DNA from: Escherichia coli
GTDB lineage: Bacteria > Pseudomonadota > Gammaproteobacteria > Enterobacterales > Enterobacteriaceae
Direction: 5' to 3' (one strand)
DNA: 64,000 nucleotides
NCBI RefSeq assembly: GCF_016026235.1
Contig: NZ_CP065613.1
Shown here piece by piece: positions 3,724 through 12,341 of this stretch (position 1 is the first letter of the stretch; each line of letters opens with the position of its first letter). The notes below the pieces were generated by a model. The model did not search any database. It saw nothing but the letters and a program-made list of their open reading frames with translations, and was not told where the DNA came from. Both the position numbers and the translations under genes were made by a program.

Positions 3724-4817
3724 AAGAAACGCTCCATCTTACTGCTGTCAGTTCGTTTATTACTGTATCTGCGCGGATTGCCGGGCTTCATGGGAGTGGA
3801 AAGCACCCGTGCACTTTCCTGGTCCACAGGCAGAAAATGTCCGTTATAAAAACGCCGGTAAATCGTTCCCAGAGAACCGTTACGTTGTTTCGTGATATTG
3901 ATTTCTGCGATGCCCCTGGCCTGCGTATCCGGGTTGTACACTTCATCCCTGTAAAGCATCAGAATGATGTCTGCATCCGCCTCTATTTCTCCGGAATTTT
4001 TCAGGTCTGAGTTCATGGGACGTTTATTGGGTCTGGACTCCACACCGCGGGAGAGCTGGCTCAGCGCAATCAACGGAAAACCACCGGATTTTGCCAGGCC
4101 TTTAAGCCCCTTTGAGATTTCACCCACGGCAAGGTCATGACGCCCCGTGGTTCGGGTTTTTATCAGCCCGAGATAATCAACCACCACCAGCGCCGTTTCC
4201 GGATGTTTAATCAGATGGTGTTTCGTTGTTGCGCATATCTCATCAATGGTCAGGTTCGCCTGGTCCACCATCCAGATATTGCGCCCGGTCATCCGCCCCA
4301 CCCCTTGTGAGAAACGCGCCCAGTCTTCATCTTCAAAGTGAGCCACAGATTTCAGGCGTGATACTGGCATCCCTCCAGCCGCAGACACCATACGTTCACC
4401 AATCTGGATGTTCGCCATCTCCATGGTGAACAGAAGCACACCATGCCCCTGCTCAGTCACCTTGTCGATGATGTCCAGCGCAAGTTCGGTTTTCCCCATC
4501 GAAGGACGAGCCGCAATAAATACCAGGTCGCCGGGCTCCATGCCGCCTGTTTTTGCGTCCAGTTCATCAATACCGGTCATCAACGTCCTGGATTTCTCCA
4601 GTCCCTGATTCCGGCATTCAACACGCTCAACCACCTCCGGAAGCACATCATCAATATGTACCGACTGAATAACGCCCTTTTCCGTCGACAATGAGGCCAT
4701 CATGTTCTGTGCATCCTTAAGAGCATCTTCAGCTGCTTCACAGGTATGCGCATTGAGGTAGCCTGAGTTTAACGGACACTCCTTCCTGAAATAGAATGGC
4801 ATCAGAAGGAGCTAATA

Positions 4818-5120
4818 ATGAGCAGAAAAAACCAACGTTACTCTAAAGAGTTCAAAGCCGAAGCTGTCAGAACGGTTCTTGAAAATCAACTTTCGATCAG
4901 TGAAGGCGCTTCCCGATTATCCCTTCCTGAAGGCACTTTAGGACAATGGGTTACCGCCGCCAGAAAAGGGCTCGGTACTCCTGGTTCCCGCACGGTGGCT
5001 GAACTGGAATCTGAAATTCTGCAACTGCGTAAGGCGTTAAATGAAGCTCGCCTTGAGCGAGATATATTAAAAAAAGCAACAGCGTATTTTGCACAGGAGT
5101 CGCTGAAAAATACGCGTTAA
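4818..5120 (+). CDS. IS600 OrfA (HTH transposase subunit)
   Basis: 100 aa, MSRKNQRYSKEFKAEAVR..., an IS3-family OrfA. It has Asn5 where the other two copies have Thr. Confidence 0.9.
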   Translation: MSRKNQRYSKEFKAEAVRTVLENQLSISEGASRLSLPEGTLGQWVTAARKGLGTPGSRTVAELESEILQLRKALNEARLERDILKKATAYFAQESLKNTR

Positions 5121-5155
5121 TCGAACAATGGCGACAACAATTTCCCATTGAAGCG

Positions 5156-5974
5156 ATGTGTCAGGTATTTGGTGTATCCAGGAGCGGTTATTACAACTGG
5201 GTACAGCATGAACCCTCAGACAGAAAACAAAGTGATGAGCGGCTAAAACTGGAGATTAAGGTGGCACATATCCGCACTCGCGAAACATATGGAACCCGGC
5301 GGCTCCAGACGGAGCTGGCAGAGAATGGCATCATCGTTGGTCGTGACCGACTGGCACGTCTTCGTAAGGAGCTAAGGCTACGCTGTAAGCAGAAACGCAA
5401 GTTCAGAGCGACTACGAACCCGAACCACAATCTGCCAGTTGCGCCAAATCTGCTGAACCAGACGTTCGCTCCTACAGCACCAAATCAGGTCTGGGTGGCG
5501 GACCTGACGTATGTTGCCACACAGGAGGGATGGTTGTACCTCGCTGGCATCAAAGATGTTTATACGTGCGAAATTGTCGGCTACGCCATGGGAGAGCGCA
5601 TGACAAAAGAGCTGACAGGTAAAGCCCTGTTTATGGCGCTCAGGAGCCAGCGCCCACCTGCCGGGCTAATCCACCACTCTGATCGAGGTTCACAGTACTG
5701 CGCATACGATTACCGGGTCATACAGGAGCAGTCTGGTCTGAAAACATCAATGTCGCGTAAAGGTAACTGTTACGACAACGCTCCGATGGAAAGCTTCTGG
5801 GGAACGCTGAAAAATGAGAGCCTGAGCCACTATCGTTTTAATAACCGGGATGAAGCCATCTCAGTAATACGGGAATACATTGAGATTTTCTACAATCGTC
5901 AGCGTCGTCACTCTCGTCTGGGGAATATCTCCCCGGCAGCCTTCAGGGAAAAATATCATCAGATGGCTGCTTAA
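5156..5974 (+). CDS. IS600 OrfB (DDE integrase domain; expressed as an OrfAB fusion by -1 frameshift)
   Basis: 272 aa carrying the rve-type motifs VWVADLTY, HSDRGSQY and DNAPMESFW. Confidence 0.9.
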   Translation: MCQVFGVSRSGYYNWVQHEPSDRKQSDERLKLEIKVAHIRTRETYGTRRLQTELAENGIIVGRDRLARLRKELRLRCKQKRKFRATTNPNHNLPVAPNLLNQTFAPTAPNQVWVADLTYVATQEGWLYLAGIKDVYTCEIVGYAMGERMTKELTGKALFMALRSQRPPAGLIHHSDRGSQYCAYDYRVIQEQSGLKTSMSRKGNCYDNAPMESFWGTLKNESLSHYRFNNRDEAISVIREYIEIFYNRQRRHSRLGNISPAAFREKYHQMAA

Positions 5975-6374
5975 AAAAAGAACAAATGGTAGTGTCCGCT
6001 ATTGCCAGTACACCTCACATCGCGTAATTTCTGTAATGCCTCGTTCAGTGTTTTTTCTGCATCGCGCAGTGCGGCATTGCGCCGCAACGCTGCAACATAG
6101 TGCTCCAGTGAAGACTTCACCCAGGTTTTACGCCCGGTATCAGTAATCACCGGGGCAAGTTCTGGCATCTCATTGCACAACAGCACAGGATCAATCACGC
6201 CGGACACACGGGCCTGTCTGCAGATGCCTGTGTAGATATCCCGGTACGGTCGTACAGAAAAAACGTCCGCCGGTAGTGTGGCCAGAATATCCATCACTTC
6301 AGGATCTGCTCCGCGCAGAAAGAACGCGCCGATGACAGCGCCTTCAAGGTCATCGTTACGCCATACTGGAGTTG

Positions 6375-7253
6375 TCATGCAGCCACACCTCTGATACGAG
6401 AACGGTAACTGGGCCAGTTAAACGACAACCAGTTGCGTCCCCCGTCTGTGATCCTGTCGGCAATTCGGGGACTGATGAACGCCCACAACTCTTCCGGTGA
6501 GAGGTTACTGATCAGAATGGTGGGCAAGATACTTTCGTACCTGGCGTTGATAATTTCCTGCAAAATAGCCATTTCAGCCGCGCTGCCAAACTGAACGCCA
6601 ACTTCGTCGATGATCAGCAAATCCATTGACGCATAACGCTCAATAACTTCATCCGCTGTTTTTTCGCTGTCATTCCGCCAGCAATTTTTCACAGCACGGG
6701 TAAGGCGCATCACGTCGGTGATCTCCACACTGGCCAGATAGTTACGGATGATGTGTTTTGCCATAGCCACAGCCAGATGATTTTTTCCGGTACCACAACT
6801 GCCGGTCATAACAAGACTGGTACCGTTCTCCAGCATATCTGGCCAGTTCTCCGCATAGCGGCGACAGGCCGCAAGATTTCTGGCTGCGTCAGGATTAACC
6901 TCCAGATAATTATCAAACTCGCAGTCCCGAAAACGCAGGGCAATTCCGGCGTTATCAGTCAGCTCTTCCGCCTTGATGGACGACAGCTCCATGGTCAAAT
7001 CGTTGGCCTCAGCGATTAAGCAGTCAGGGCAGCATGAAATTTTTTCTCTGTCCTCGCCATTACGATCGCTCCACACCAGTATATGCGTGTGATATTCGCC
7101 ATGTTTTTCGCAATATCCGCGACCTTCACGCATCAGGCAGGAACGATAAGGCCATGGCTTTTCGCCCTTCTGAGCAAATGCAATCTCTGCCCGTAACTCA
7201 TCCATTCGCGCCTGTAGTCTTTTTTGTTGTTCACGCAGGTTAAACGTCATCAT
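6375..7253 (-). CDS. DnaC/IstB-like AAA+ helicase loader with N-terminal Cys-rich region
   Basis: Walker A is GSCGTGKNHLA and Walker B is LLIIDEVG. GAGGTGA lies upstream of the ATG at 7253, and an alternative GTG lies at 7262. It sits between the O-like and DnaB-like genes. Confidence 0.75.
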   Translation of the reverse strand: MMTFNLREQQKRLQARMDELRAEIAFAQKGEKPWPYRSCLMREGRGYCEKHGEYHTHILVWSDRNGEDREKISCCPDCLIAEANDLTMELSSIKAEELTDNAGIALRFRDCEFDNYLEVNPDAARNLAACRRYAENWPDMLENGTSLVMTGSCGTGKNHLAVAMAKHIIRNYLASVEITDVMRLTRAVKNCWRNDSEKTADEVIERYASMDLLIIDEVGVQFGSAAEMAILQEIINARYESILPTILISNLSPEELWAFISPRIADRITDGGRNWLSFNWPSYRSRIRGVAA

Positions 7254-7263
7254 CGCTGTCACC

Positions 7264-8172
7264 TCAGAATGTCAGTTTGTCACTGGATTTACCGAATTTG
7301 TCAGACATGGCTCCCAGGCCAGCCAGGACATCGACCTGTCGCTGTCGCCCACCTCCGGGAGCGGCTGGCTGTTGCCAGAAGTCTTCGAAGTGACGATCGG
7401 GTCCAAAGAACGTCGCTGCCTGCTTCACGAACTGTGTGCCGTTATTTCCTGTGGCACGTATCCAGGCGGCATACCGCTTCACGCCATCAAGCATGGTCTC
7501 CGGTTTTATTCCCTCCCTGATACGGGCTTTCCAGGCTTTGAAGGCTGCGGATTTTGAGTTACCACCAGCACGTTTTGGATATTCCTGCCAGGCCTGTTCA
7601 AATTCCGGTGAATATTCCTGTCGGGCAGAACGCGCTGGTGCAGACGCGTCAGCGGATGCGCCAATAGTGTTTTTACTCTCTGTAGTATTCTCTGAAGTAA
7701 TCTCTGTTGTATTCTCTGTAAGATCGAAATTGGTTTTCCCTTCTCCGCGGCGAGGGGTTTCCCGTGTCCGCGGTGAAGGCTTTCCCTCCTCCGCGAAATT
7801 GGGTTTTACAGTTTCCCGAAAACGGGTTTCCCCATTTCGGGAAAACTGATTGTTTTCATTGATAATTTCATTAAGGCGCTCACAATCTATACGGTAGAAC
7901 ATTTTGTGCTCAAGACGCTTGTTGGTTTCAACCAAAATGCCTCTGGACACAAGATGCTTACGCGCTACAGCCTGTTGTTCAAATGTAAGTCCGGTTTCGT
8001 GTTGTATCTCTTCACGCGTTTTATGTACGCCTTCCGCTGCATGTGCTTTATCCTGCCAGTAAAAAATCTGACCAAAGAAAATAACAGCGTGCGGACTTCC
8101 CATGTATTTAACGAGCCCAGGGTAATAAGCAACCGGATGTCCAAAATCGAGCAGAAGATCAGACGGACGCAT
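7264..8172 (-). CDS. Phage replication initiation protein (O-like / winged-helix N-terminal domain)
   Basis: Supported by its position upstream of the loader and helicase. The N-terminal region is wHTH-like, followed by an acidic/Thr-rich linker and the C-terminal motif YPKRAGGNSKSAAFKAWKARI. GGGAGG lies 5 nt upstream of the ATG at 8172. Confidence 0.55.
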   Translation of the reverse strand: MRPSDLLLDFGHPVAYYPGLVKYMGSPHAVIFFGQIFYWQDKAHAAEGVHKTREEIQHETGLTFEQQAVARKHLVSRGILVETNKRLEHKMFYRIDCERLNEIINENNQFSRNGETRFRETVKPNFAEEGKPSPRTRETPRRGEGKTNFDLTENTTEITSENTTESKNTIGASADASAPARSARQEYSPEFEQAWQEYPKRAGGNSKSAAFKAWKARIREGIKPETMLDGVKRYAAWIRATGNNGTQFVKQAATFFGPDRHFEDFWQQPAAPGGGRQRQVDVLAGLGAMSDKFGKSSDKLTF

Positions 8173-8392
8173 AGCCACCTCCCAGGCGTTTAAACATTTT
8201 TCCGGACTGAAACGCCACCAGCGGATAACTCAGGGTATGAGTACGTCCCTGAACCTGGCAGACAACCTTCTGGCTTTCTGTATTGACCAGGCAAACCCGC
8301 AGAACGTGGCCGTTGCTGGTGGTGAACCACTGCCCCACTCGGGGGCAACGGTTGTATCGGTGATACAGGGAATTAACGATGCGGCGAATCAT
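8159..8392 (-). CDS. Small phage protein, DUF4222-like (77 aa)
   Basis: ATGA coupling to the upstream Rha gene. GQWFTTSNGHVLRVCLV... follows the same pattern as the ORFs at 9977-10153 and 17560-17802. Confidence 0.4.
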   Translation of the reverse strand: MIRRIVNSLYHRYNRCPRVGQWFTTSNGHVLRVCLVNTESQKVVCQVQGRTHTLSYPLVAFQSGKMFKRLGGGYASV

Positions 8393-8952
8393 GGACGCAC
8401 CTCCTTGTCAGAACCATTCAGCCTGGAATCAACAAGTGCAGCACCAAAAACAGCATCACCTACACGGTCGTACAGTTTGCTGGCCAGCGGAGATTCAACA
8501 GCCTTAAGCATTGGGTAAAGCTGGCTTGTCCAGATTTGATGGATTTCACGCAAATGCAGGTATACGCCTCTGGCGTTTTGTGCGACAGATGACATGTCAG
8601 CCGCACCAGCTCCTGATAAGCTCCTCTCCATCTGGTTAAAGGCATTGATGTATGCCTCTTTGAACCGGGCGGCACGTTTACCAGTGAAGCCCATAGCAAG
8701 GAAGGCGAAGCCGTCGCGGGTGATTTGGTAGCAGGGAAGTTTGCGAGTACCGCCGTTGGGCTGGCGTACCAAAATTGATGTCTCCGCAAAATTGCGGGCA
8801 CAAAACTCTGGAGAACAATCCAAAATGCGGATCTTTTTCAGAACATCGTCATGACGTTTAGAGAAGAAGTTGGCAACAGCCAGGGATGAAGTAACAGCCT
8901 GACCATCAACGATGGCAATTTCAGGTTGAGTGAGGGTTGGGATCGTAGCCAT
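8389..8952 (-). CDS. Phage regulatory protein Rha family (187 aa)
   Basis: MATIPTLTQPEIAIVDGQAVTSSLAVANFFSKRHDDVLKKIR... has the Rha N-terminal signature. AAGAGG lies upstream of the ATG at 8952. It is only the 3' third of the 620-aa track ORF. Confidence 0.75.
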   Translation of the reverse strand: MATIPTLTQPEIAIVDGQAVTSSLAVANFFSKRHDDVLKKIRILDCSPEFCARNFAETSILVRQPNGGTRKLPCYQITRDGFAFLAMGFTGKRAARFKEAYINAFNQMERSLSGAGAADMSSVAQNARGVYLHLREIHQIWTSQLYPMLKAVESPLASKLYDRVGDAVFGAALVDSRLNGSDKEVRP

Positions 8953-9306
8953 GATGGCAGCCTCTTTGGTGATTTTTAATAACTCACCACCAAAGCTTCT
9001 CACGGCAATAGGTGGTGAGACGTACAGGGGTGAGAAACCGGTCACCAAAGAACCCGGCCCAACCGAAGTTGGCCCTGCACGCCCCACCATAATTTGGGCG
9101 TAATGCTGCTCATGACACAAAAAAACCGCAAGAGCGCGGTTGTGCGCTTTGGTGAATTCCGGGTTCTCACGCCCGGCACCCGCTTTATAAGGTGCGGAGA
9201 CAGTGTAACGTCCCGAAATTGCAGAATCAATATCAAAATGTTGTAGCTGTGGACAACGCGAAGCCTTGTTGTTATTGTTTACAACAAGAACCAGAGGAAG
9301 CTTTAA

Positions 9307-9594
9307 ATGCCATCCAGACTGTATAAACAGTTCATCCGTCATCTCGGTGAATCTGAATACATACGAATCCGCATATGGGAAGTGGAGCCTGCTGTATTGG
9401 GTAGCCAGCACAACTACAAATACAGCATGGCTTATGTCGTTGATGGCATGTGTGTGATGCGTTACGACAACGAACGGGGTAAAGGCGATCACAAACACAT
9501 TGGTAGTCAGGAAGTCAGCACCAGCTTTGTCACCATTGAACAACTGCTCGCTGATTTTCTGGCTGACGTTGAATCCATCCGCAGAGGTATCTGA
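9307..9594 (+). CDS. TumE-like (DUF6516) putative toxin, 95 aa
   Basis: KYSMAYVVDGMCVMRYDNERGKGDHKHIG...FVTIEQLLADFLADVESIR matches the DUF6516/TumE pattern (YDNERGKGDH.H) as I recall it. Confidence 0.6.
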   Translation: MPSRLYKQFIRHLGESEYIRIRIWEVEPAVLGSQHNYKYSMAYVVDGMCVMRYDNERGKGDHKHIGSQEVSTSFVTIEQLLADFLADVESIRRGI

Positions 9595-9595
9595 C

Positions 9596-9955
9596 ATGAG
9601 AACCGTAACAATCCGAATCGAGTCAATGGATAATTTCACGGCTGATGTGCTGTCTGCGTTCCAGGAAGCAGCTACCGGAGCAAAAGCAACCAGAGAAAAC
9701 GTTATTTCATTTCCTGACTGGCAAATGATGCATAAGGTACTGACACCAAAACGCATGGACATTCTGATGGCAATGACTGGTGCCGGAGAAATGTCCATCC
9801 GAAAAATTGCAGCCCTGGTTGGACGTGATGTAAAAAGCGTGCATACTGACGTGACCGCACTCATCAGCAACGGTTTACTGGAAAAAAGCGAGCGCGGAAC
9901 GTCATTCCCGTATGACGACATCCACTTTGATTTTACGCTGGGCAAGGCGGCGTAA
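9596..9955 (+). CDS. HTH DNA-binding protein, TumA / COG4190-like putative antitoxin (119 aa)
   Basis: The ATG lies 1 nt after the upstream stop codon. MRTVTIRIESMD...LTPKRMDILMAMTGAGEMSIRKIAALVGRDVKSVHTDVTALISNGLLEK is a winged HTH. Confidence 0.6.
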   Translation: MRTVTIRIESMDNFTADVLSAFQEAATGAKATRENVISFPDWQMMHKVLTPKRMDILMAMTGAGEMSIRKIAALVGRDVKSVHTDVTALISNGLLEKSERGTSFPYDDIHFDFTLGKAA

Positions 9956-9976
9956 TTTTTCGTATATACCGTGCCG

Positions 9977-10153
9977 TCATTCCGGCGGCGCTTCACACTC
10001 CACAAAATCACGCCTGAACAACCACAACGGGCTGAAACATTCGTACGGATAGCCGTCACGCAGGTAAATGACTCGCTGCGTTTCAGACTCCCAGCGTATA
10101 ACGTGGACACGACGCCCCCTTCCGTCACGGAACCAGCGATTGAGGACTTGCAT
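9977..10153 (-). CDS. Small phage protein, DUF4222-like (58 aa, below the ORF-track cutoff)
   Basis: Hand translation gives MQVLNRWFRDGRGRRVHVIRWESETQRVIYLRDGYPYECFSPLWLFRRDFVECEAPPE. It lies directly downstream of the second Rha-type gene. Confidence 0.5.
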   Translation of the reverse strand: MQVLNRWFRDGRGRRVHVIRWESETQRVIYLRDGYPYECFSPLWLFRRDFVECEAPPE

Positions 10154-10172
10154 AAATTACCCGTAAACATTG

Positions 10173-10886
10173 TCACACCTTCCAGCCAGTAGCCTGAAAC
10201 AGGCCCATTCTCGGGTGATACCAGCGGGTACCACGCTGAACGGCACCACACATCATGTGATGAAACGCCTTCAGAAACGGTTCCACAGCAACAATTTCAC
10301 GACGTGCCAGTAATCCATCTGGCGTCAAAAATTCATGAGTGTCTGTCGGGATGTTGTATGCATTTACAAGCGTGCGACATTTCGCATCTGACATACCGGT
10401 TTTTGCTTTCAGCTGGCGATATCCGGCATAGCCCTCTCGAATGGTACCCTTTTTGATTTGCTCAACTGTTTCGGCTACGTGGCTGATTTTTTCTTCCACC
10501 TGAGTGATCCGTTTCTGCTGACGAACAGCCTCGAGCGCCATTGCGGCCACCATTTCGATTTCGCTCATTGGTTTGCGGATCTGTTCTTCCAGTTCGCGCC
10601 AGCGATCTACCAGGCGAGCAGTGAATTCAGGACAGAGCTGTGCGACGACAATGATGCTGTCGCGCTTACCTTGTTCTCCTTCAAACAGGTAATGCTCATA
10701 TTGAACTTTAAAACCTAAGTTATTGATTCTTTCGGAAACCTCAATTTGAGGAGACCGGACAACGCCACCTTTGGCTAATGTTTCAATAGTGCGTTTCACA
10801 TTGTCATGACGCTTACCCACCAGTTCTGCGATCTCAACGCTGGTCATGGATGCTTTGTCGTTAAAAATTGCGGTGTTCACTGCCAT
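10173..10886 (-). CDS. Rha-family regulator / antirepressor-like protein
   Basis: MTSVEIAELVGKRHDNVKRTIETLAKGGV... is a Rha-type N-terminus, followed by a coiled-coil and a KilAC-like C-terminus. The start is uncertain (ATG 10886, GTG 10880 or track start 10922), and AAGGAG lies adjacent. Confidence 0.7.
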   Translation of the reverse strand: MAVNTAIFNDKASMTSVEIAELVGKRHDNVKRTIETLAKGGVVRSPQIEVSERINNLGFKVQYEHYLFEGEQGKRDSIIVVAQLCPEFTARLVDRWRELEEQIRKPMSEIEMVAAMALEAVRQQKRITQVEEKISHVAETVEQIKKGTIREGYAGYRQLKAKTGMSDAKCRTLVNAYNIPTDTHEFLTPDGLLARREIVAVEPFLKAFHHMMCGAVQRGTRWYHPRMGLFQATGWKV

Positions 10887-10999
10887 CTCCTTACGGATAA
10901 ATTCTTTTAAGATTCCGCACATTCGTACTTGTTGGTGCCGAACCTTCCTTCAGTTATCCTTTTGATCCCTATAAACAAAAGAACCAAAGGAGGTTCGAC

Positions 11000-11293
11000 A
11001 TGAAAGTTCAGGCCGTTGGTTTATTCTGGTTTCGCGATGCGATTCAGTATCATGAGCTCAAAAATATTTTTACTGATGCTGATGTGCTCTCCGACAGTTA
11101 CACCGAGTGGAAACACGACGCTGAAAAATTGATTAAGCGTGTCGAAAGAAGCGGGCAACGAGTTATTAAAGTTGAAGCGGATACAGCCGAGTTCATCACC
11201 TGGTGTACAAGCGAAGGCATTGGACTCAATGCCGAAGGTAGAATGCAGTTCGCATCCTTTAAGGCTTACCAACAACTTCTCAGCGAACGCTAA
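11000..11293 (+). CDS. Hypothetical 97-aa protein (moron antisense to the PR operon)
   Basis: Strong RBS in AAAGGAGGTTCGACATG. The composition is protein-like. An 8-bp-stem hairpin at 11300-11324 follows the stop codon. Confidence 0.55.
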   Translation: MKVQAVGLFWFRDAIQYHELKNIFTDADVLSDSYTEWKHDAEKLIKRVERSGQRVIKVEADTAEFITWCTSEGIGLNAEGRMQFASFKAYQQLLSER

Positions 11294-11363: not shown

Positions 11364-11573
11364 TCACTTCTCATCCTCTGTGTGCGCTAAGCTTGGATGT
11401 GTATATGGAATGTTCGGATCCAGATGGCAGAGAATGGCAACATCCTCCGGAACGCCCCGCGTTTTCCACTTTCCAACTCCCTGACTACCACGAGGCTTTC
11501 CTTTCTTTGGGAACCTGCGGCCAATAGCGGCATTGGTTTTAAATTGAGTTTTTAATATTTCATAAAGGGTCAT
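11364..11573 (-). CDS. Cro-like regulator (YdaS/Cro HTH family), 69 aa
   Basis: Divergent from the cI-like gene across a 110-bp operator region. First gene of the rightward (minus-strand) operon. GSQGVGKWKTRGVPEDVAILCHLD resembles the YdaS-type HTH. Confidence 0.65.
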   Translation of the reverse strand: MTLYEILKTQFKTNAAIGRRFPKKGKPRGSQGVGKWKTRGVPEDVAILCHLDPNIPYTHPSLAHTEDEK

Positions 11574-11684: not shown

Positions 11685-12341
11685 ATGAAATCTTTAGGTG
11701 AACGGCTAATCAACGCACGACAAAAAGCTGGGTTAACGCAAGATGCGTTGGCTAAAAAAGCAGGGGTCACCAGAGTTGCAATCAGTAAAGCCGAGCAAGG
11801 CCTTACAAAAAGTTTCAACGGTGACACCCTTTTTAAAGTCGCAGCTGCACTGCAGTGTTCACCGCAGTGGCTTCAGAACGGAGATGAGAAAGGTAAGCAT
11901 TGGGAAAATAATGTTAAGAGTTGCCCCCAGAGGGACACAGCACACTCTTACCCTGTAATTAACTGGGTTCAGGCAGGATTATTCACAACTGCAGGTGATG
12001 ACTACAACATGTATGATCAGGATAACTGGAGGCATTCTGTAAAATACGCTGGTGAGAGGGGGTTCTGGCTGGAAGTGCACGGAGACTCAATGACTTCGCC
12101 TATAGGAATAACATTTCCTGAAGGAATGTCGATCCTTGTCAACCCAGATAAAGAAGTTTTTTCAGGGTGTTACGTCATTGCCAGAAAAAAATCCACCAAT
12201 GAAGCAACATTCAAAAAATATATTTCTGAAATGGGAAAGGCGTTTCTAAAGCCCCTTAATCCACAATACCCAATCATAGAAATGGACAATGATTGCGAAA
12301 TAGTAGGCGTTGTGGTTGATGCCAGATGGGATATTTTCTGA
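11685..12341 (+). CDS. CI-like prophage repressor (N-terminal Xre HTH + S24 LexA-type autopeptidase)
   Basis: The HTH is LTQDALAKKAGVTRVAISKAEQG. The S24 motifs are a VQAG cleavage-site-like segment, GDSMTSP and FKKY. The RBS is AAAGGAGAAGAAAAATG. Trimmed from the track start at 11610. Confidence 0.85.
   Translation: MKSLGERLINARQKAGLTQDALAKKAGVTRVAISKAEQGLTKSFNGDTLFKVAAALQCSPQWLQNGDEKGKHWENNVKSCPQRDTAHSYPVINWVQAGLFTTAGDDYNMYDQDNWRHSVKYAGERGFWLEVHGDSMTSPIGITFPEGMSILVNPDKEVFSGCYVIARKKSTNEATFKKYISEMGKAFLKPLNPQYPIIEMDNDCEIVGVVVDARWDIF

Follow-up and report, generated by a model that had tools for sequence, protein, structure and literature searches.

Why should two genes of a toxin-antitoxin (TA) type lie backwards in the early operon of a lambdoid prophage, and how is such cargo tolerated there? 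The question is raised by a locus of Escherichia coli (RefSeq assembly GCF_016026235.1, contig NZ_CP065613.1), from which a stretch of 64,000 nucleotides, here called the window, was analysed; loci compared with it carry L numbers. Two plus-strand genes, tumE (9307-9594, 95 aa) and tumA (9596-9955, 119 aa), stand between minus-strand genes for a DUF4222 protein (9977-10153) and a Rha-family protein (8389-8952). The coordinates that a first-pass annotation had given for the pair and its 1-nt gap were exact on re-reading; the junction runs TGA (9592-9594)-c-ATG (9596). Positions 9234-9990 are probably a type II TA operon of the TumE family, toxin-first and autoregulated. The identity of the gene pair is itself routine, as RefSeq already names the homologues. 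What the sequence comparison adds is a predicted operator and promoter architecture, a predicted specificity residue, the cassette boundaries, the likely identity of a neighbouring small RNA (sRNA) and an antisense frame whose openness appears to depend on context.

The TumE and TumA proteins

TumE matches the Pfam family PF20126 (formerly DUF6516) with 56.9 bits against a cut-off of 23.4 (E 2.1e-15, profile positions 6-81 of 81). With this score well over the curated cut-off, and with the core YDNERGKGDHKH present, the earlier assignment of the first gene to the DUF6516/TumE proteins holds. The phage-orthologue match is phrog_16135, and RefSeq names the homologues 'toxin-antitoxin system TumE family protein'. 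Across 66 homologues the residues G60, D61, H62 and H64 are invariant, and H35, K38, Y39, Y53, D54, N55, E56, G58 and K59 are nearly so. Because it is invariant or nearly invariant, the polar motif (H35, K38, Y39, Y53, DNE and GKGDHKH) suggests an active site. The AlphaFold2 (AF2) model, with a mean predicted local distance difference test (pLDDT) score of 95, has six strands plus a C-terminal helix. A sequence search of the PDB gave chance-level cupin matches only (E 0.45) and no solved homologue, and comparison of the fold gave no catalytic fold match. The gene is preceded by a Shine-Dalgarno (SD) sequence, GAGGAA, at 9294-9299.

TumA matches the HVO_A0114 family (PF25212) with 87.2 bits against a cut-off of 27.6 (E 6.5e-25), and over the aligned 99% of the query it is 100% identical to a Shigella dysenteriae protein. 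Its AF2 model (pLDDT 80) is a winged helix-turn-helix (HTH) with a recognition helix, residues 79-91, that is opened by residue 79. The nearest solved folds are the CggR DNA-binding domain and the ArsR/NolR/CadC and MarR domains, all generic winged HTH folds, and a sequence search of the PDB gave a weak ArsR match only (E 0.1). The winged HTH proposed for the second gene is thus borne out by PF25212. The antitoxin annotation ascribed to proteins of this type is not, since RefSeq uses 'HVO_A0114 family putative DNA-binding protein', and a literature search on HVO_A0114 found nothing. The SD of tumA, AGAGG, lies inside the end of tumE.

The two genes travel as a unit. tumA lies directly 3' of tumE on the same strand in 78 of 80 GTDB species loci, and the two exceptions are contig ends. 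The first-pass annotation had named in advance, as a ground for giving up its reading, that the pair be not conserved; the partner is present in all 78 loci with enough DNA. The predicted starts of tumA cluster close to the end of tumE, between an overlap of 4 nt and a gap of 10 nt, and the 4-nt overlap is the commonest spacing (35 of 79 loci).

The cassette and its distribution

The limits of the module were set by an empty site. The homology of E. coli 2014C-4135 (L091) to the window ends at 9233 (...AATCAATAT) and resumes at 9991, and the insert is therefore 9234-9990, a cassette of 757 bp. In the empty site 10 unrelated nucleotides lie between the flanks, and the 3' end of the DUF4222 gene abuts the promoter region of isrK, the gene of the neighbouring sRNA. 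This related prophage also shows that the module was inserted antisense in a lambdoid early-right operon, as had been supposed. A terminator-like hairpin plus T-run (9933-9965, plus strand) overlaps the tumA stop codon; it has an 8-pair stem, TTACGCTG...CGGCGTAA, followed by TTTTTCGTAT.

Lambdoid-prophage morons carry their own promoter and terminator and are inserted between two phage genes. The window cassette is moron-like in each respect, with discrete boundaries, a predicted promoter and terminator, a position between phage genes, and absence from a collinear relative. Judged by its sequence, 9234-9990 is an autonomous cassette of this kind, made up of promoter, operators, two genes with SD sequences and a terminator-like hairpin. 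Unlike the usual morons, it runs against the host operon, and the antisense frame of its embedded enterobacterial copies is purged of stops. Its exact boundaries can be used for deletion or transplantation.

A second copy of the cassette, 77.7% identical over 9252-9996, is found at another position, the nin region of an Stx1c prophage (L002), where it is again antisense and has an ORF6N gene on one side and replication-side genes on the other. Further settings of the pair are lambdoid prophages of Salmonella and Serratia, integrase/AlpA satellites, 71 plasmids and chromosomal sites between housekeeping genes. IMG/VR has 76 loci with the pair. A relative is encoded in at least 594 GTDB species, and the family comprises about 2,000 clusters at 50% identity.

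Predicted promoter and operators

A perfect inverted repeat, CTTGTTGT-N8-ACAACAAG, at 9265-9288 ends 18 nt before the tumE ATG and had been proposed as an operator. Such a repeat is not rare in itself, since 11 repeats of at least 7 nt occur in the same 1.3 kb; its weight comes from its conservation across loci and not from the repeat as such. The comparison yields two putative operators. O1 (9239-9258) has the form TGTTGT-N8-ACAACG, and O2 (9265-9288, core 9267-9286) has the core TGTTGT-N8-ACAACA. Their centres are 28 bp apart, and together they form four half-sites TGTTGT/ACAACA with a 14-bp spacing. A consensus scan placed a putative sigma-70 promoter, P_tumE, at 9250-9278 on the plus strand, with a -35 element TGGACA (9250-9255), a 17-nt spacer and an extended -10 element TG-n-TATTGT (hexamer 9273-9278). 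The -35 hexamer lies inside the right arm of O1, and the extended -10 lies inside the spacer of O2, the arms of which bracket the hexamer. The 9265-9288 palindrome was also considered as a terminator or RNA hairpin. This was rejected, as it is followed by no T-run on either strand and is upstream of the predicted transcription start.

The arms of O1 and O2 are kept and their spacers diverged in the Stx1c-prophage copy, in Pseudescherichia and in Serratia, and the -35 element is a perfect TTGACA in L002 and L005. The exact motif TG[TA]TG-N10-CA[TA]CA is present within 100 nt upstream of tumE in 59 of the 80 species loci. In that stretch it reaches 10.2 occurrences per kb, while the other 559 kb of these loci have 0.014 per kb, an enrichment of about 700-fold. 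The string TTGAC[AC][AT]C is found within the same distance in 53 of the 80 loci, mostly as TTGACAAC, in which the -35 TTGACA and the right arm of the palindrome upstream are fused. This operator architecture is conserved from Enterobacterales to Alpha- and Betaproteobacteria and Acidobacteria.

The arms of the palindrome co-vary. Besides TGTTGT/ACAACA, there are loci with TGTTGC/GCAACA, in Izhakiella (imperfect, with GCAGCA, in Pantoea), and with TGATGT/ACATCA, in several unrelated lineages. Among the columns of TumA, residue 79 gives the best separation of the TGTTG-type and TGATG-type loci; it is V or I in 47 of 47 TGTTG-type loci and F or M in 9 of 9 TGATG-type loci. Some of the pairs compared differ in little else in the helix, for example GRDVKAVHGDV and GRDMKAVHGDV. 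The candidate operator of the first-pass annotation has thus become two palindromes over the -35 and -10 elements, conserved across phyla and co-varying with TumA residue 79, and this is strong comparative evidence that TumA would bind the O1 and O2 sites. On the same evidence the unit appears to have an autoregulatory operator at its own promoter, one of the marks of a type II TA system. The predicted match of V79 versus F79 or M79 to T versus A at half-site position 3 allows a swap experiment.

In most alpha- and betaproteobacterial loci (within L011-L082, which are most of the non-enterobacterial loci; region about -36 to -1 relative to tumE) the predicted tumE start directly follows the second palindrome. 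As the -10 element is inside this palindrome, the tumE mRNA may be leaderless there, or the assigned starts may be too far upstream.

HigBA, MqsRA and HicAB likewise have the toxin gene first, an antitoxin of the HTH type and palindromic operators over the promoter. TumE of the window is unrelated in sequence and fold to the toxins of these systems, and the DNA-binding domain of TumA is an ArsR/MarR-like winged helix, not an Xre-type HTH.

Probable toxin-antitoxin function

As a TA operon the cassette would work as follows. Dimers of TumA would sit on O1 and O2 through the winged HTH and repress P_tumE, residue 79 contacting half-site position 3. TumA would neutralise TumE by binding to it, probably via an N-terminal strand-helix (residues 1-30). 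Free TumE would inhibit translation and growth would stop, by analogy with a distant member of the family. Toxicity, neutralisation and the translation target are reasonably likely, given the family membership and the TA-like genetics of the pair.

The analogy is with the TumE-TumA superfamily of Durairaj et al. 2023 (PMC10584680), where six gammaproteobacterial DUF6516 proteins arrested E. coli growth and were neutralised by the products of their neighbours. The TumE of Allochromatium tepidum lowered 35S-Met incorporation, and an RNase activity of TumE was proposed but is unproven (PMC10584680). With six pairs experimentally validated (PMC10584680), the remark of the first-pass annotation that the family is only bioinformatically named is outdated, though the literature search on TumE found nothing beyond this paper and its preprint. 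The window pair shares with the superfamily (PMC10584680) the toxin-family domain with its YDNERGKGDHxH core, the bicistronic arrangement with a DNA-binding partner and the location on mobile elements. The validated pairs, which belong to subcluster 1a, differ from it in their antitoxins, which are unrelated small proteins encoded 5' of the toxin and include a RelB-like one in cluster 1 (PMC10584680); in the window the toxin gene comes first and the 119-aa HVO_A0114 partner follows, the reverse of the predominant published TumE-TumA order. The window pair thus belongs to an HVO_A0114-partnered, toxin-first class of TumE, distinct from the validated pairs. Because the validated antitoxins are small upstream proteins and not downstream HVO_A0114 proteins, we infer the roles of toxin and antitoxin in the window.

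Several points weigh against a TA operon. The experiments on TumE cover the six subcluster-1a pairs only, with other antitoxins that are small, unrelated and encoded upstream. The validated toxins are longer, at about 110-130 aa as estimated from the 398-461 bp synthetic fragments. The six strands and one helix in the AF2 model of the 95-aa TumE compare with seven strands and two helices in the published fold (PMC10584680). No match for TumE was found in the copy of NCBIfam that was searched. The module is rare, being present in 17 of 5,426 complete E. coli genomes and in 1 of 50,697 phage records. Finally, P_tumE, O1 and O2 are predictions.

A genuine TumE-TumA pair may have been selected for anti-phage abortive infection, and not for mere addiction or stabilisation. 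This is conceivable, though we think it rather unlikely. Translation-targeting TA systems often act in abortive infection, and this counts for the idea, as does the presence of the pair in prophages and satellites, where related loci also have BrnT/BrnA, HigB, a ParE-like protein or SIR2. Against it, no defence-system model in PADLOC-DB 2.0 matches the pair; TumE scores at chance level there (E 0.045), and TumA matches only the HTH parts of the generic Csa3/CasR models. No phage-challenge data were found in the literature, and the window prophage is probably cryptic, with an IS600 element in its helicase gene. Its state fits stabilisation equally well.

Another reading, which we consider unlikely, is that the short, HVO_A0114-partnered TumE is non-toxic and serves as a co-repressor or small ligand-binding partner in an autoregulated transcription-factor operon. 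It is favoured by the different class of the validated toxins, by the shorter TumE, which is without one strand and one helix of those toxins, and by the failure of the model to match a catalytic fold. Strict pairing, overlapping or abutting genes and a spread over plasmids, prophages, satellites and chromosomes are, on the other hand, typical of a TA module. The polar motif, invariant or near-invariant in the 66 homologues, also speaks against a non-toxic TumE, as does a Pfam match far over the cut-off to the family that holds the validated toxins. A TA operon remains the reading that we prefer.

The neighbouring IsrK-C4-Rha unit

Outside the cassette, on the minus strand, lie an IsrK-like sRNA (9119-9195; RF01394, 63.6 bits against a gathering threshold of 50, full length) and a C4-like antisense RNA (9008-9094; RF01695, 83.4 bits against 45, full length), the latter in the leader of the Rha, antirepressor-type, gene at 8389-8952. 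The first-pass annotation had noted here a minus-strand hairpin plus T-run just beyond the module. The hairpin (9141-9124) and T-run, followed by TTTTTGTG, are there; by the Rfam match, they are no anonymous terminator but that of the IsrK-like sRNA. A sub-threshold c4-a1b1 match was seen at 9156-9208. A plausible isrK promoter can be picked out by eye just outside the cassette, with a -35 element TTGATT at 9230-9225 and a -10 element TTACAC at 9208-9203; it is kept as putative because the consensus scan did not list it.

The Pfam domain Phage_ASH (PF10554) spans 9207-8920 and coincides exactly with isrK plus C4; its frame continues into the Rha gene, and it lies likewise over isrK plus C4 in L098, L009, L129 and L132. 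Either the leader codes for both RNA and protein, or PF10554 was built on translated sRNA sequence.

In Gifsy-1, the promoter PisrK drives isrK-orf45-anrP, some transcripts pass the IsrK terminator, and the short form of IsrK acts in trans to switch on translation of AnrP, which is antirepressor-like (PMC4825925). The window unit resembles this IsrK-orf45-AnrP unit (PMC4825925) and the c4-icd-ant unit of P1 immI in having an isrK-like sRNA with a terminator, a C4-like RNA and an antirepressor-type gene, here Rha. It differs in its upstream neighbour, which is antQ in Gifsy-1 and the divergent tumE promoter in the window, and in its leader, which has an open frame that reads in phase into the Rha gene, unlike those of the Gifsy-1 and P1 units.

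The IsrK-C4-Rha/Ash unit adjoins tumE in L002, L003, L004, L009, L098 and L132 also, and the order DUF4222, tumA-tumE, isrK-C4-Ash/Rha recurs with TumE identity down to 51%. The pair might then be a regulatory accessory of the IsrK/C4-antirepressor unit, with TumA at O1 and O2 controlling the isrK promoter and TumE modulating TumA. We regard this as very unlikely. In its favour, tumE stands head-to-head with isrK or C4 in at least eight diverged lineages (the window, L002, L009, L098, L129, L132, L088 and L004), the isrK-linked copies of TumE being as little as 51% identical. From the isrK 5' end to the tumE ATG it is 112 nt in the window lineage (window, L003 and L004) and in the copies of Izhakiella (L009) and Serratia (L098); L002 has 114 nt here and L132 has 103 nt. 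O1 is centred about 53 bp upstream of the 5' end of isrK. However, the same pair with its operators occurs without isrK or C4 in Pseudescherichia, in Pantoea, in Serratia chromosomes, in Salmonella lambdoid prophages and on the 71 plasmids, and the isrK unit is intact in the empty-site prophage that has no cassette. Both operators overlap the core of P_tumE, not that of the putative isrK promoter. As they are inside the cassette and present in loci without isrK, O1 and O2 are assigned to the tumEA unit. The arrangement recurs in diverged copies, yet the pair is widespread without isrK or C4, and the tumE-isrK neighbourhood is for this reason treated as old co-inheritance at a favoured site. 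Tandem arrays of 2-4 isrK-C4-Ash/Rha units were seen in L004 (3876-5089), in L098 and L100 (1145-3889) and in L095 (1831-2701).

An open antisense frame across the cassette

The open reading frame (ORF) list and the comparison showed a stop-free minus-strand frame of 620 codons at 8389-10251. It is codon-aligned with tumE, crosses the DUF4222 gene (in another frame), the cassette, isrK and C4, and joins the Rha gene in frame. Ten diverged lineages, which make nine clusters at 85% identity, are free of stops in this antisense frame across the cassette, and all of these copies are embedded between opposite-strand genes in enterobacterial phages or satellites. The lineages are those of the window and of the Stx1c copy L002, which share one 85% cluster, together with L085-87; L098-100 with L119; L088-90; L121; L129; L009 with L130; L104-105; and L132-134. 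Chromosomal or co-directional copies have 2-10 stops in the same frame (L005-7 with L103; L008; L010; L012; three Serratia chromosomal loci; L092-94; L095-97 with L101), and the remaining two antisense frames have 5-18 stops in these enterobacterial copies. Both states are found in one 85% cluster: there are 0 stops in L088-90, whose copies are embedded with Bro-N on one side and primase-side genes on the other, and 3-5 in L106-107 and L122-128. The strands of the flanks were taken from called genes and hand-checked ORF maps. An automatic flank-strand caller, run on 150 loci, was dropped; it miscalled L005, and shadow ORFs confused its calls.

The openness was compared with a codon-resampling null in which amino acids were kept and codons redrawn from the usage of the window (37 ORFs, 13,042 codons). 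The null gives 2.2-4.5 stops per cassette, as in the non-embedded copies, and a probability of zero stops of 0.002-0.076 per lineage. Fisher combination over the ten lineages, which are not fully independent, gives p ~1e-9, and the comparison speaks for selection. Within-gene synonymous shuffling gives P ~0.01-0.12 per lineage, a weak test because the codon pool of the embedded copies is already purged.

There are exceptions. The copy in a Pantoea satellite, which is flanked by opposite-strand genes, has 3 antisense stops, and an int-alpA, module, lipoprotein arrangement, also with opposite-strand flanks, has 5; several distant low-GC viral contigs have 11-13. In the enterobacterial embedded copies the purge is real. 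Its likeliest reason would be that the phage early mRNA is translated across the cassette, which would maintain coupling or counter polarity.

The ends of the frame in several copies are arranged like those of a translated gene in an operon. The junction in L088 has an ATGA overlapping the Bro-N stop, with GGAGG upstream, and in L098 a GTGA overlaps the DUF4222 stop. L085 again has an ATGA that overlaps the stop before it, and there the stop of the frame itself directly adjoins the start of the next gene. L129 has 4-nt overlaps at both ends, in a chain of DUF4222, the bridging frame, a 62-aa ORF and a replication-initiator-like gene (HTH_36 plus Phg_2220_C). In the window an ATG at 10170, with the SD AAGGTG, follows the stop of the Rha-family gene upstream at a distance of 2 nt.

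One mechanism, which we put forward tentatively as possible, is that selection keeps an antisense 'bridge ORF' of 0.7-2.1 kb open, so that ribosomes can cross the backwards cassette and spare the downstream genes Rho polarity. The start of such a bridge would often overlap or abut the stop of the upstream phage gene, and the frame would run into or abut the next one. Ribosomes on the polycistronic early mRNA would then cross the cassette with coupling kept, and Rho-dependent polarity on the antirepressor and replication genes would be avoided. We know of no description of an antisense-stop purge for morons. If the mechanism is right, it would show how an operon can accommodate a convergent accessory cassette in a way not described before, and it would offer a clean natural example in which an antisense frame is selected for openness, not for protein sequence. 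The purge may be of more interest than the gene pair itself, and it bears, if the frame is translated, on how operons tolerate inserted cargo.

That the long minus-strand ORF, 8389-10251, is instead the real gene and tumE and tumA its shadows is scarcely credible and is already contradicted by the conservation data: the frame is open, and the Prokaryotic Genome Annotation Pipeline (PGAP) calls no TumE and extends the Rha ORF to about 9342 in the three closest E. coli genomes (99.8% identity), but TumE and TumA both fall in curated Pfam families and their conservation spans phyla, the non-embedded copies have their 2-10 stops in the antisense frame, and the cassette-antisense part of the long ORF has no protein-family match. 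The openness of the antisense frame also bears on mis-annotation by gene callers, TumE being missing from those three annotations. In other genomes 'ash family protein' or Rha ORFs are extended over the sRNAs into tumE, and older records name TumA 'glycosyl transferase family 1'. Conflicting annotations were seen at L001 (E. coli CFSAN029787) 5290-6243, in H2 and H3, at L004 4115-5236 and at L100 3110-4105.

The prophage around the cassette

By its gene content, the part of the window around the cassette belongs to a lambdoid prophage, of which it is the immunity and early-right region. It contains a plus-strand gene for a LexA-type repressor (HTH_3 plus S24, ~11685-12341) and a small divergent gene in the cro position (11364-11573, minus). 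The minus-strand operon continues with the first, upstream, Rha-family gene (10173-10922) and the DUF4222 gene (9977-10153; PF13973, E 2.8e-15), the last codons of which are inside the cassette. The second Rha-family gene (8389-8952; PF09669, E 5.6e-27; phrog_821 and phrog_995) is downstream of isrK and C4. The gene in the replication-initiator position (7264-8178, minus) has a RefSeq homologue named 'LvrA C-terminal domain-related protein', and its product has no Pfam match. It is followed by a gene for a DnaC/IstB-like ATPase (6375-7262, minus) and by a DnaB-like helicase gene.

The helicase gene is interrupted by a 1,264-bp insertion at 4754-6017. The insertion has ORFs of an IS3-family transposase and is IS600-like, with orfA at 4818-5120 and orfB at 5156-5974. 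A 3-bp overlap of the homology on its two flanks suggests a target-site duplication. Because the insertion splits the helicase gene, the window prophage is probably replication-defective.

A further plus-strand gene, at 11000-11293 (97 aa, phrog_4753, of unknown function, with no Pfam match), is likewise antisense within this early region of the minus strand and is flanked by the cro-position gene and the first Rha-family gene. Other genes of TA or defence type lie near the TumEA cassette in the same prophages and satellites, encoding a ParE-like protein, HigB plus an HTH protein, BrnT/BrnA and SIR2; their coordinates are L003 10017-10211, L004 10561-10779, L087 7744-8471, L092 7622-8138 and L105 1-83. 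The nin region of the Stx1c prophage has an sRNA-Xcc1 match (RF02221, 68.6 bits) at L002 3826-3916 on the minus strand.

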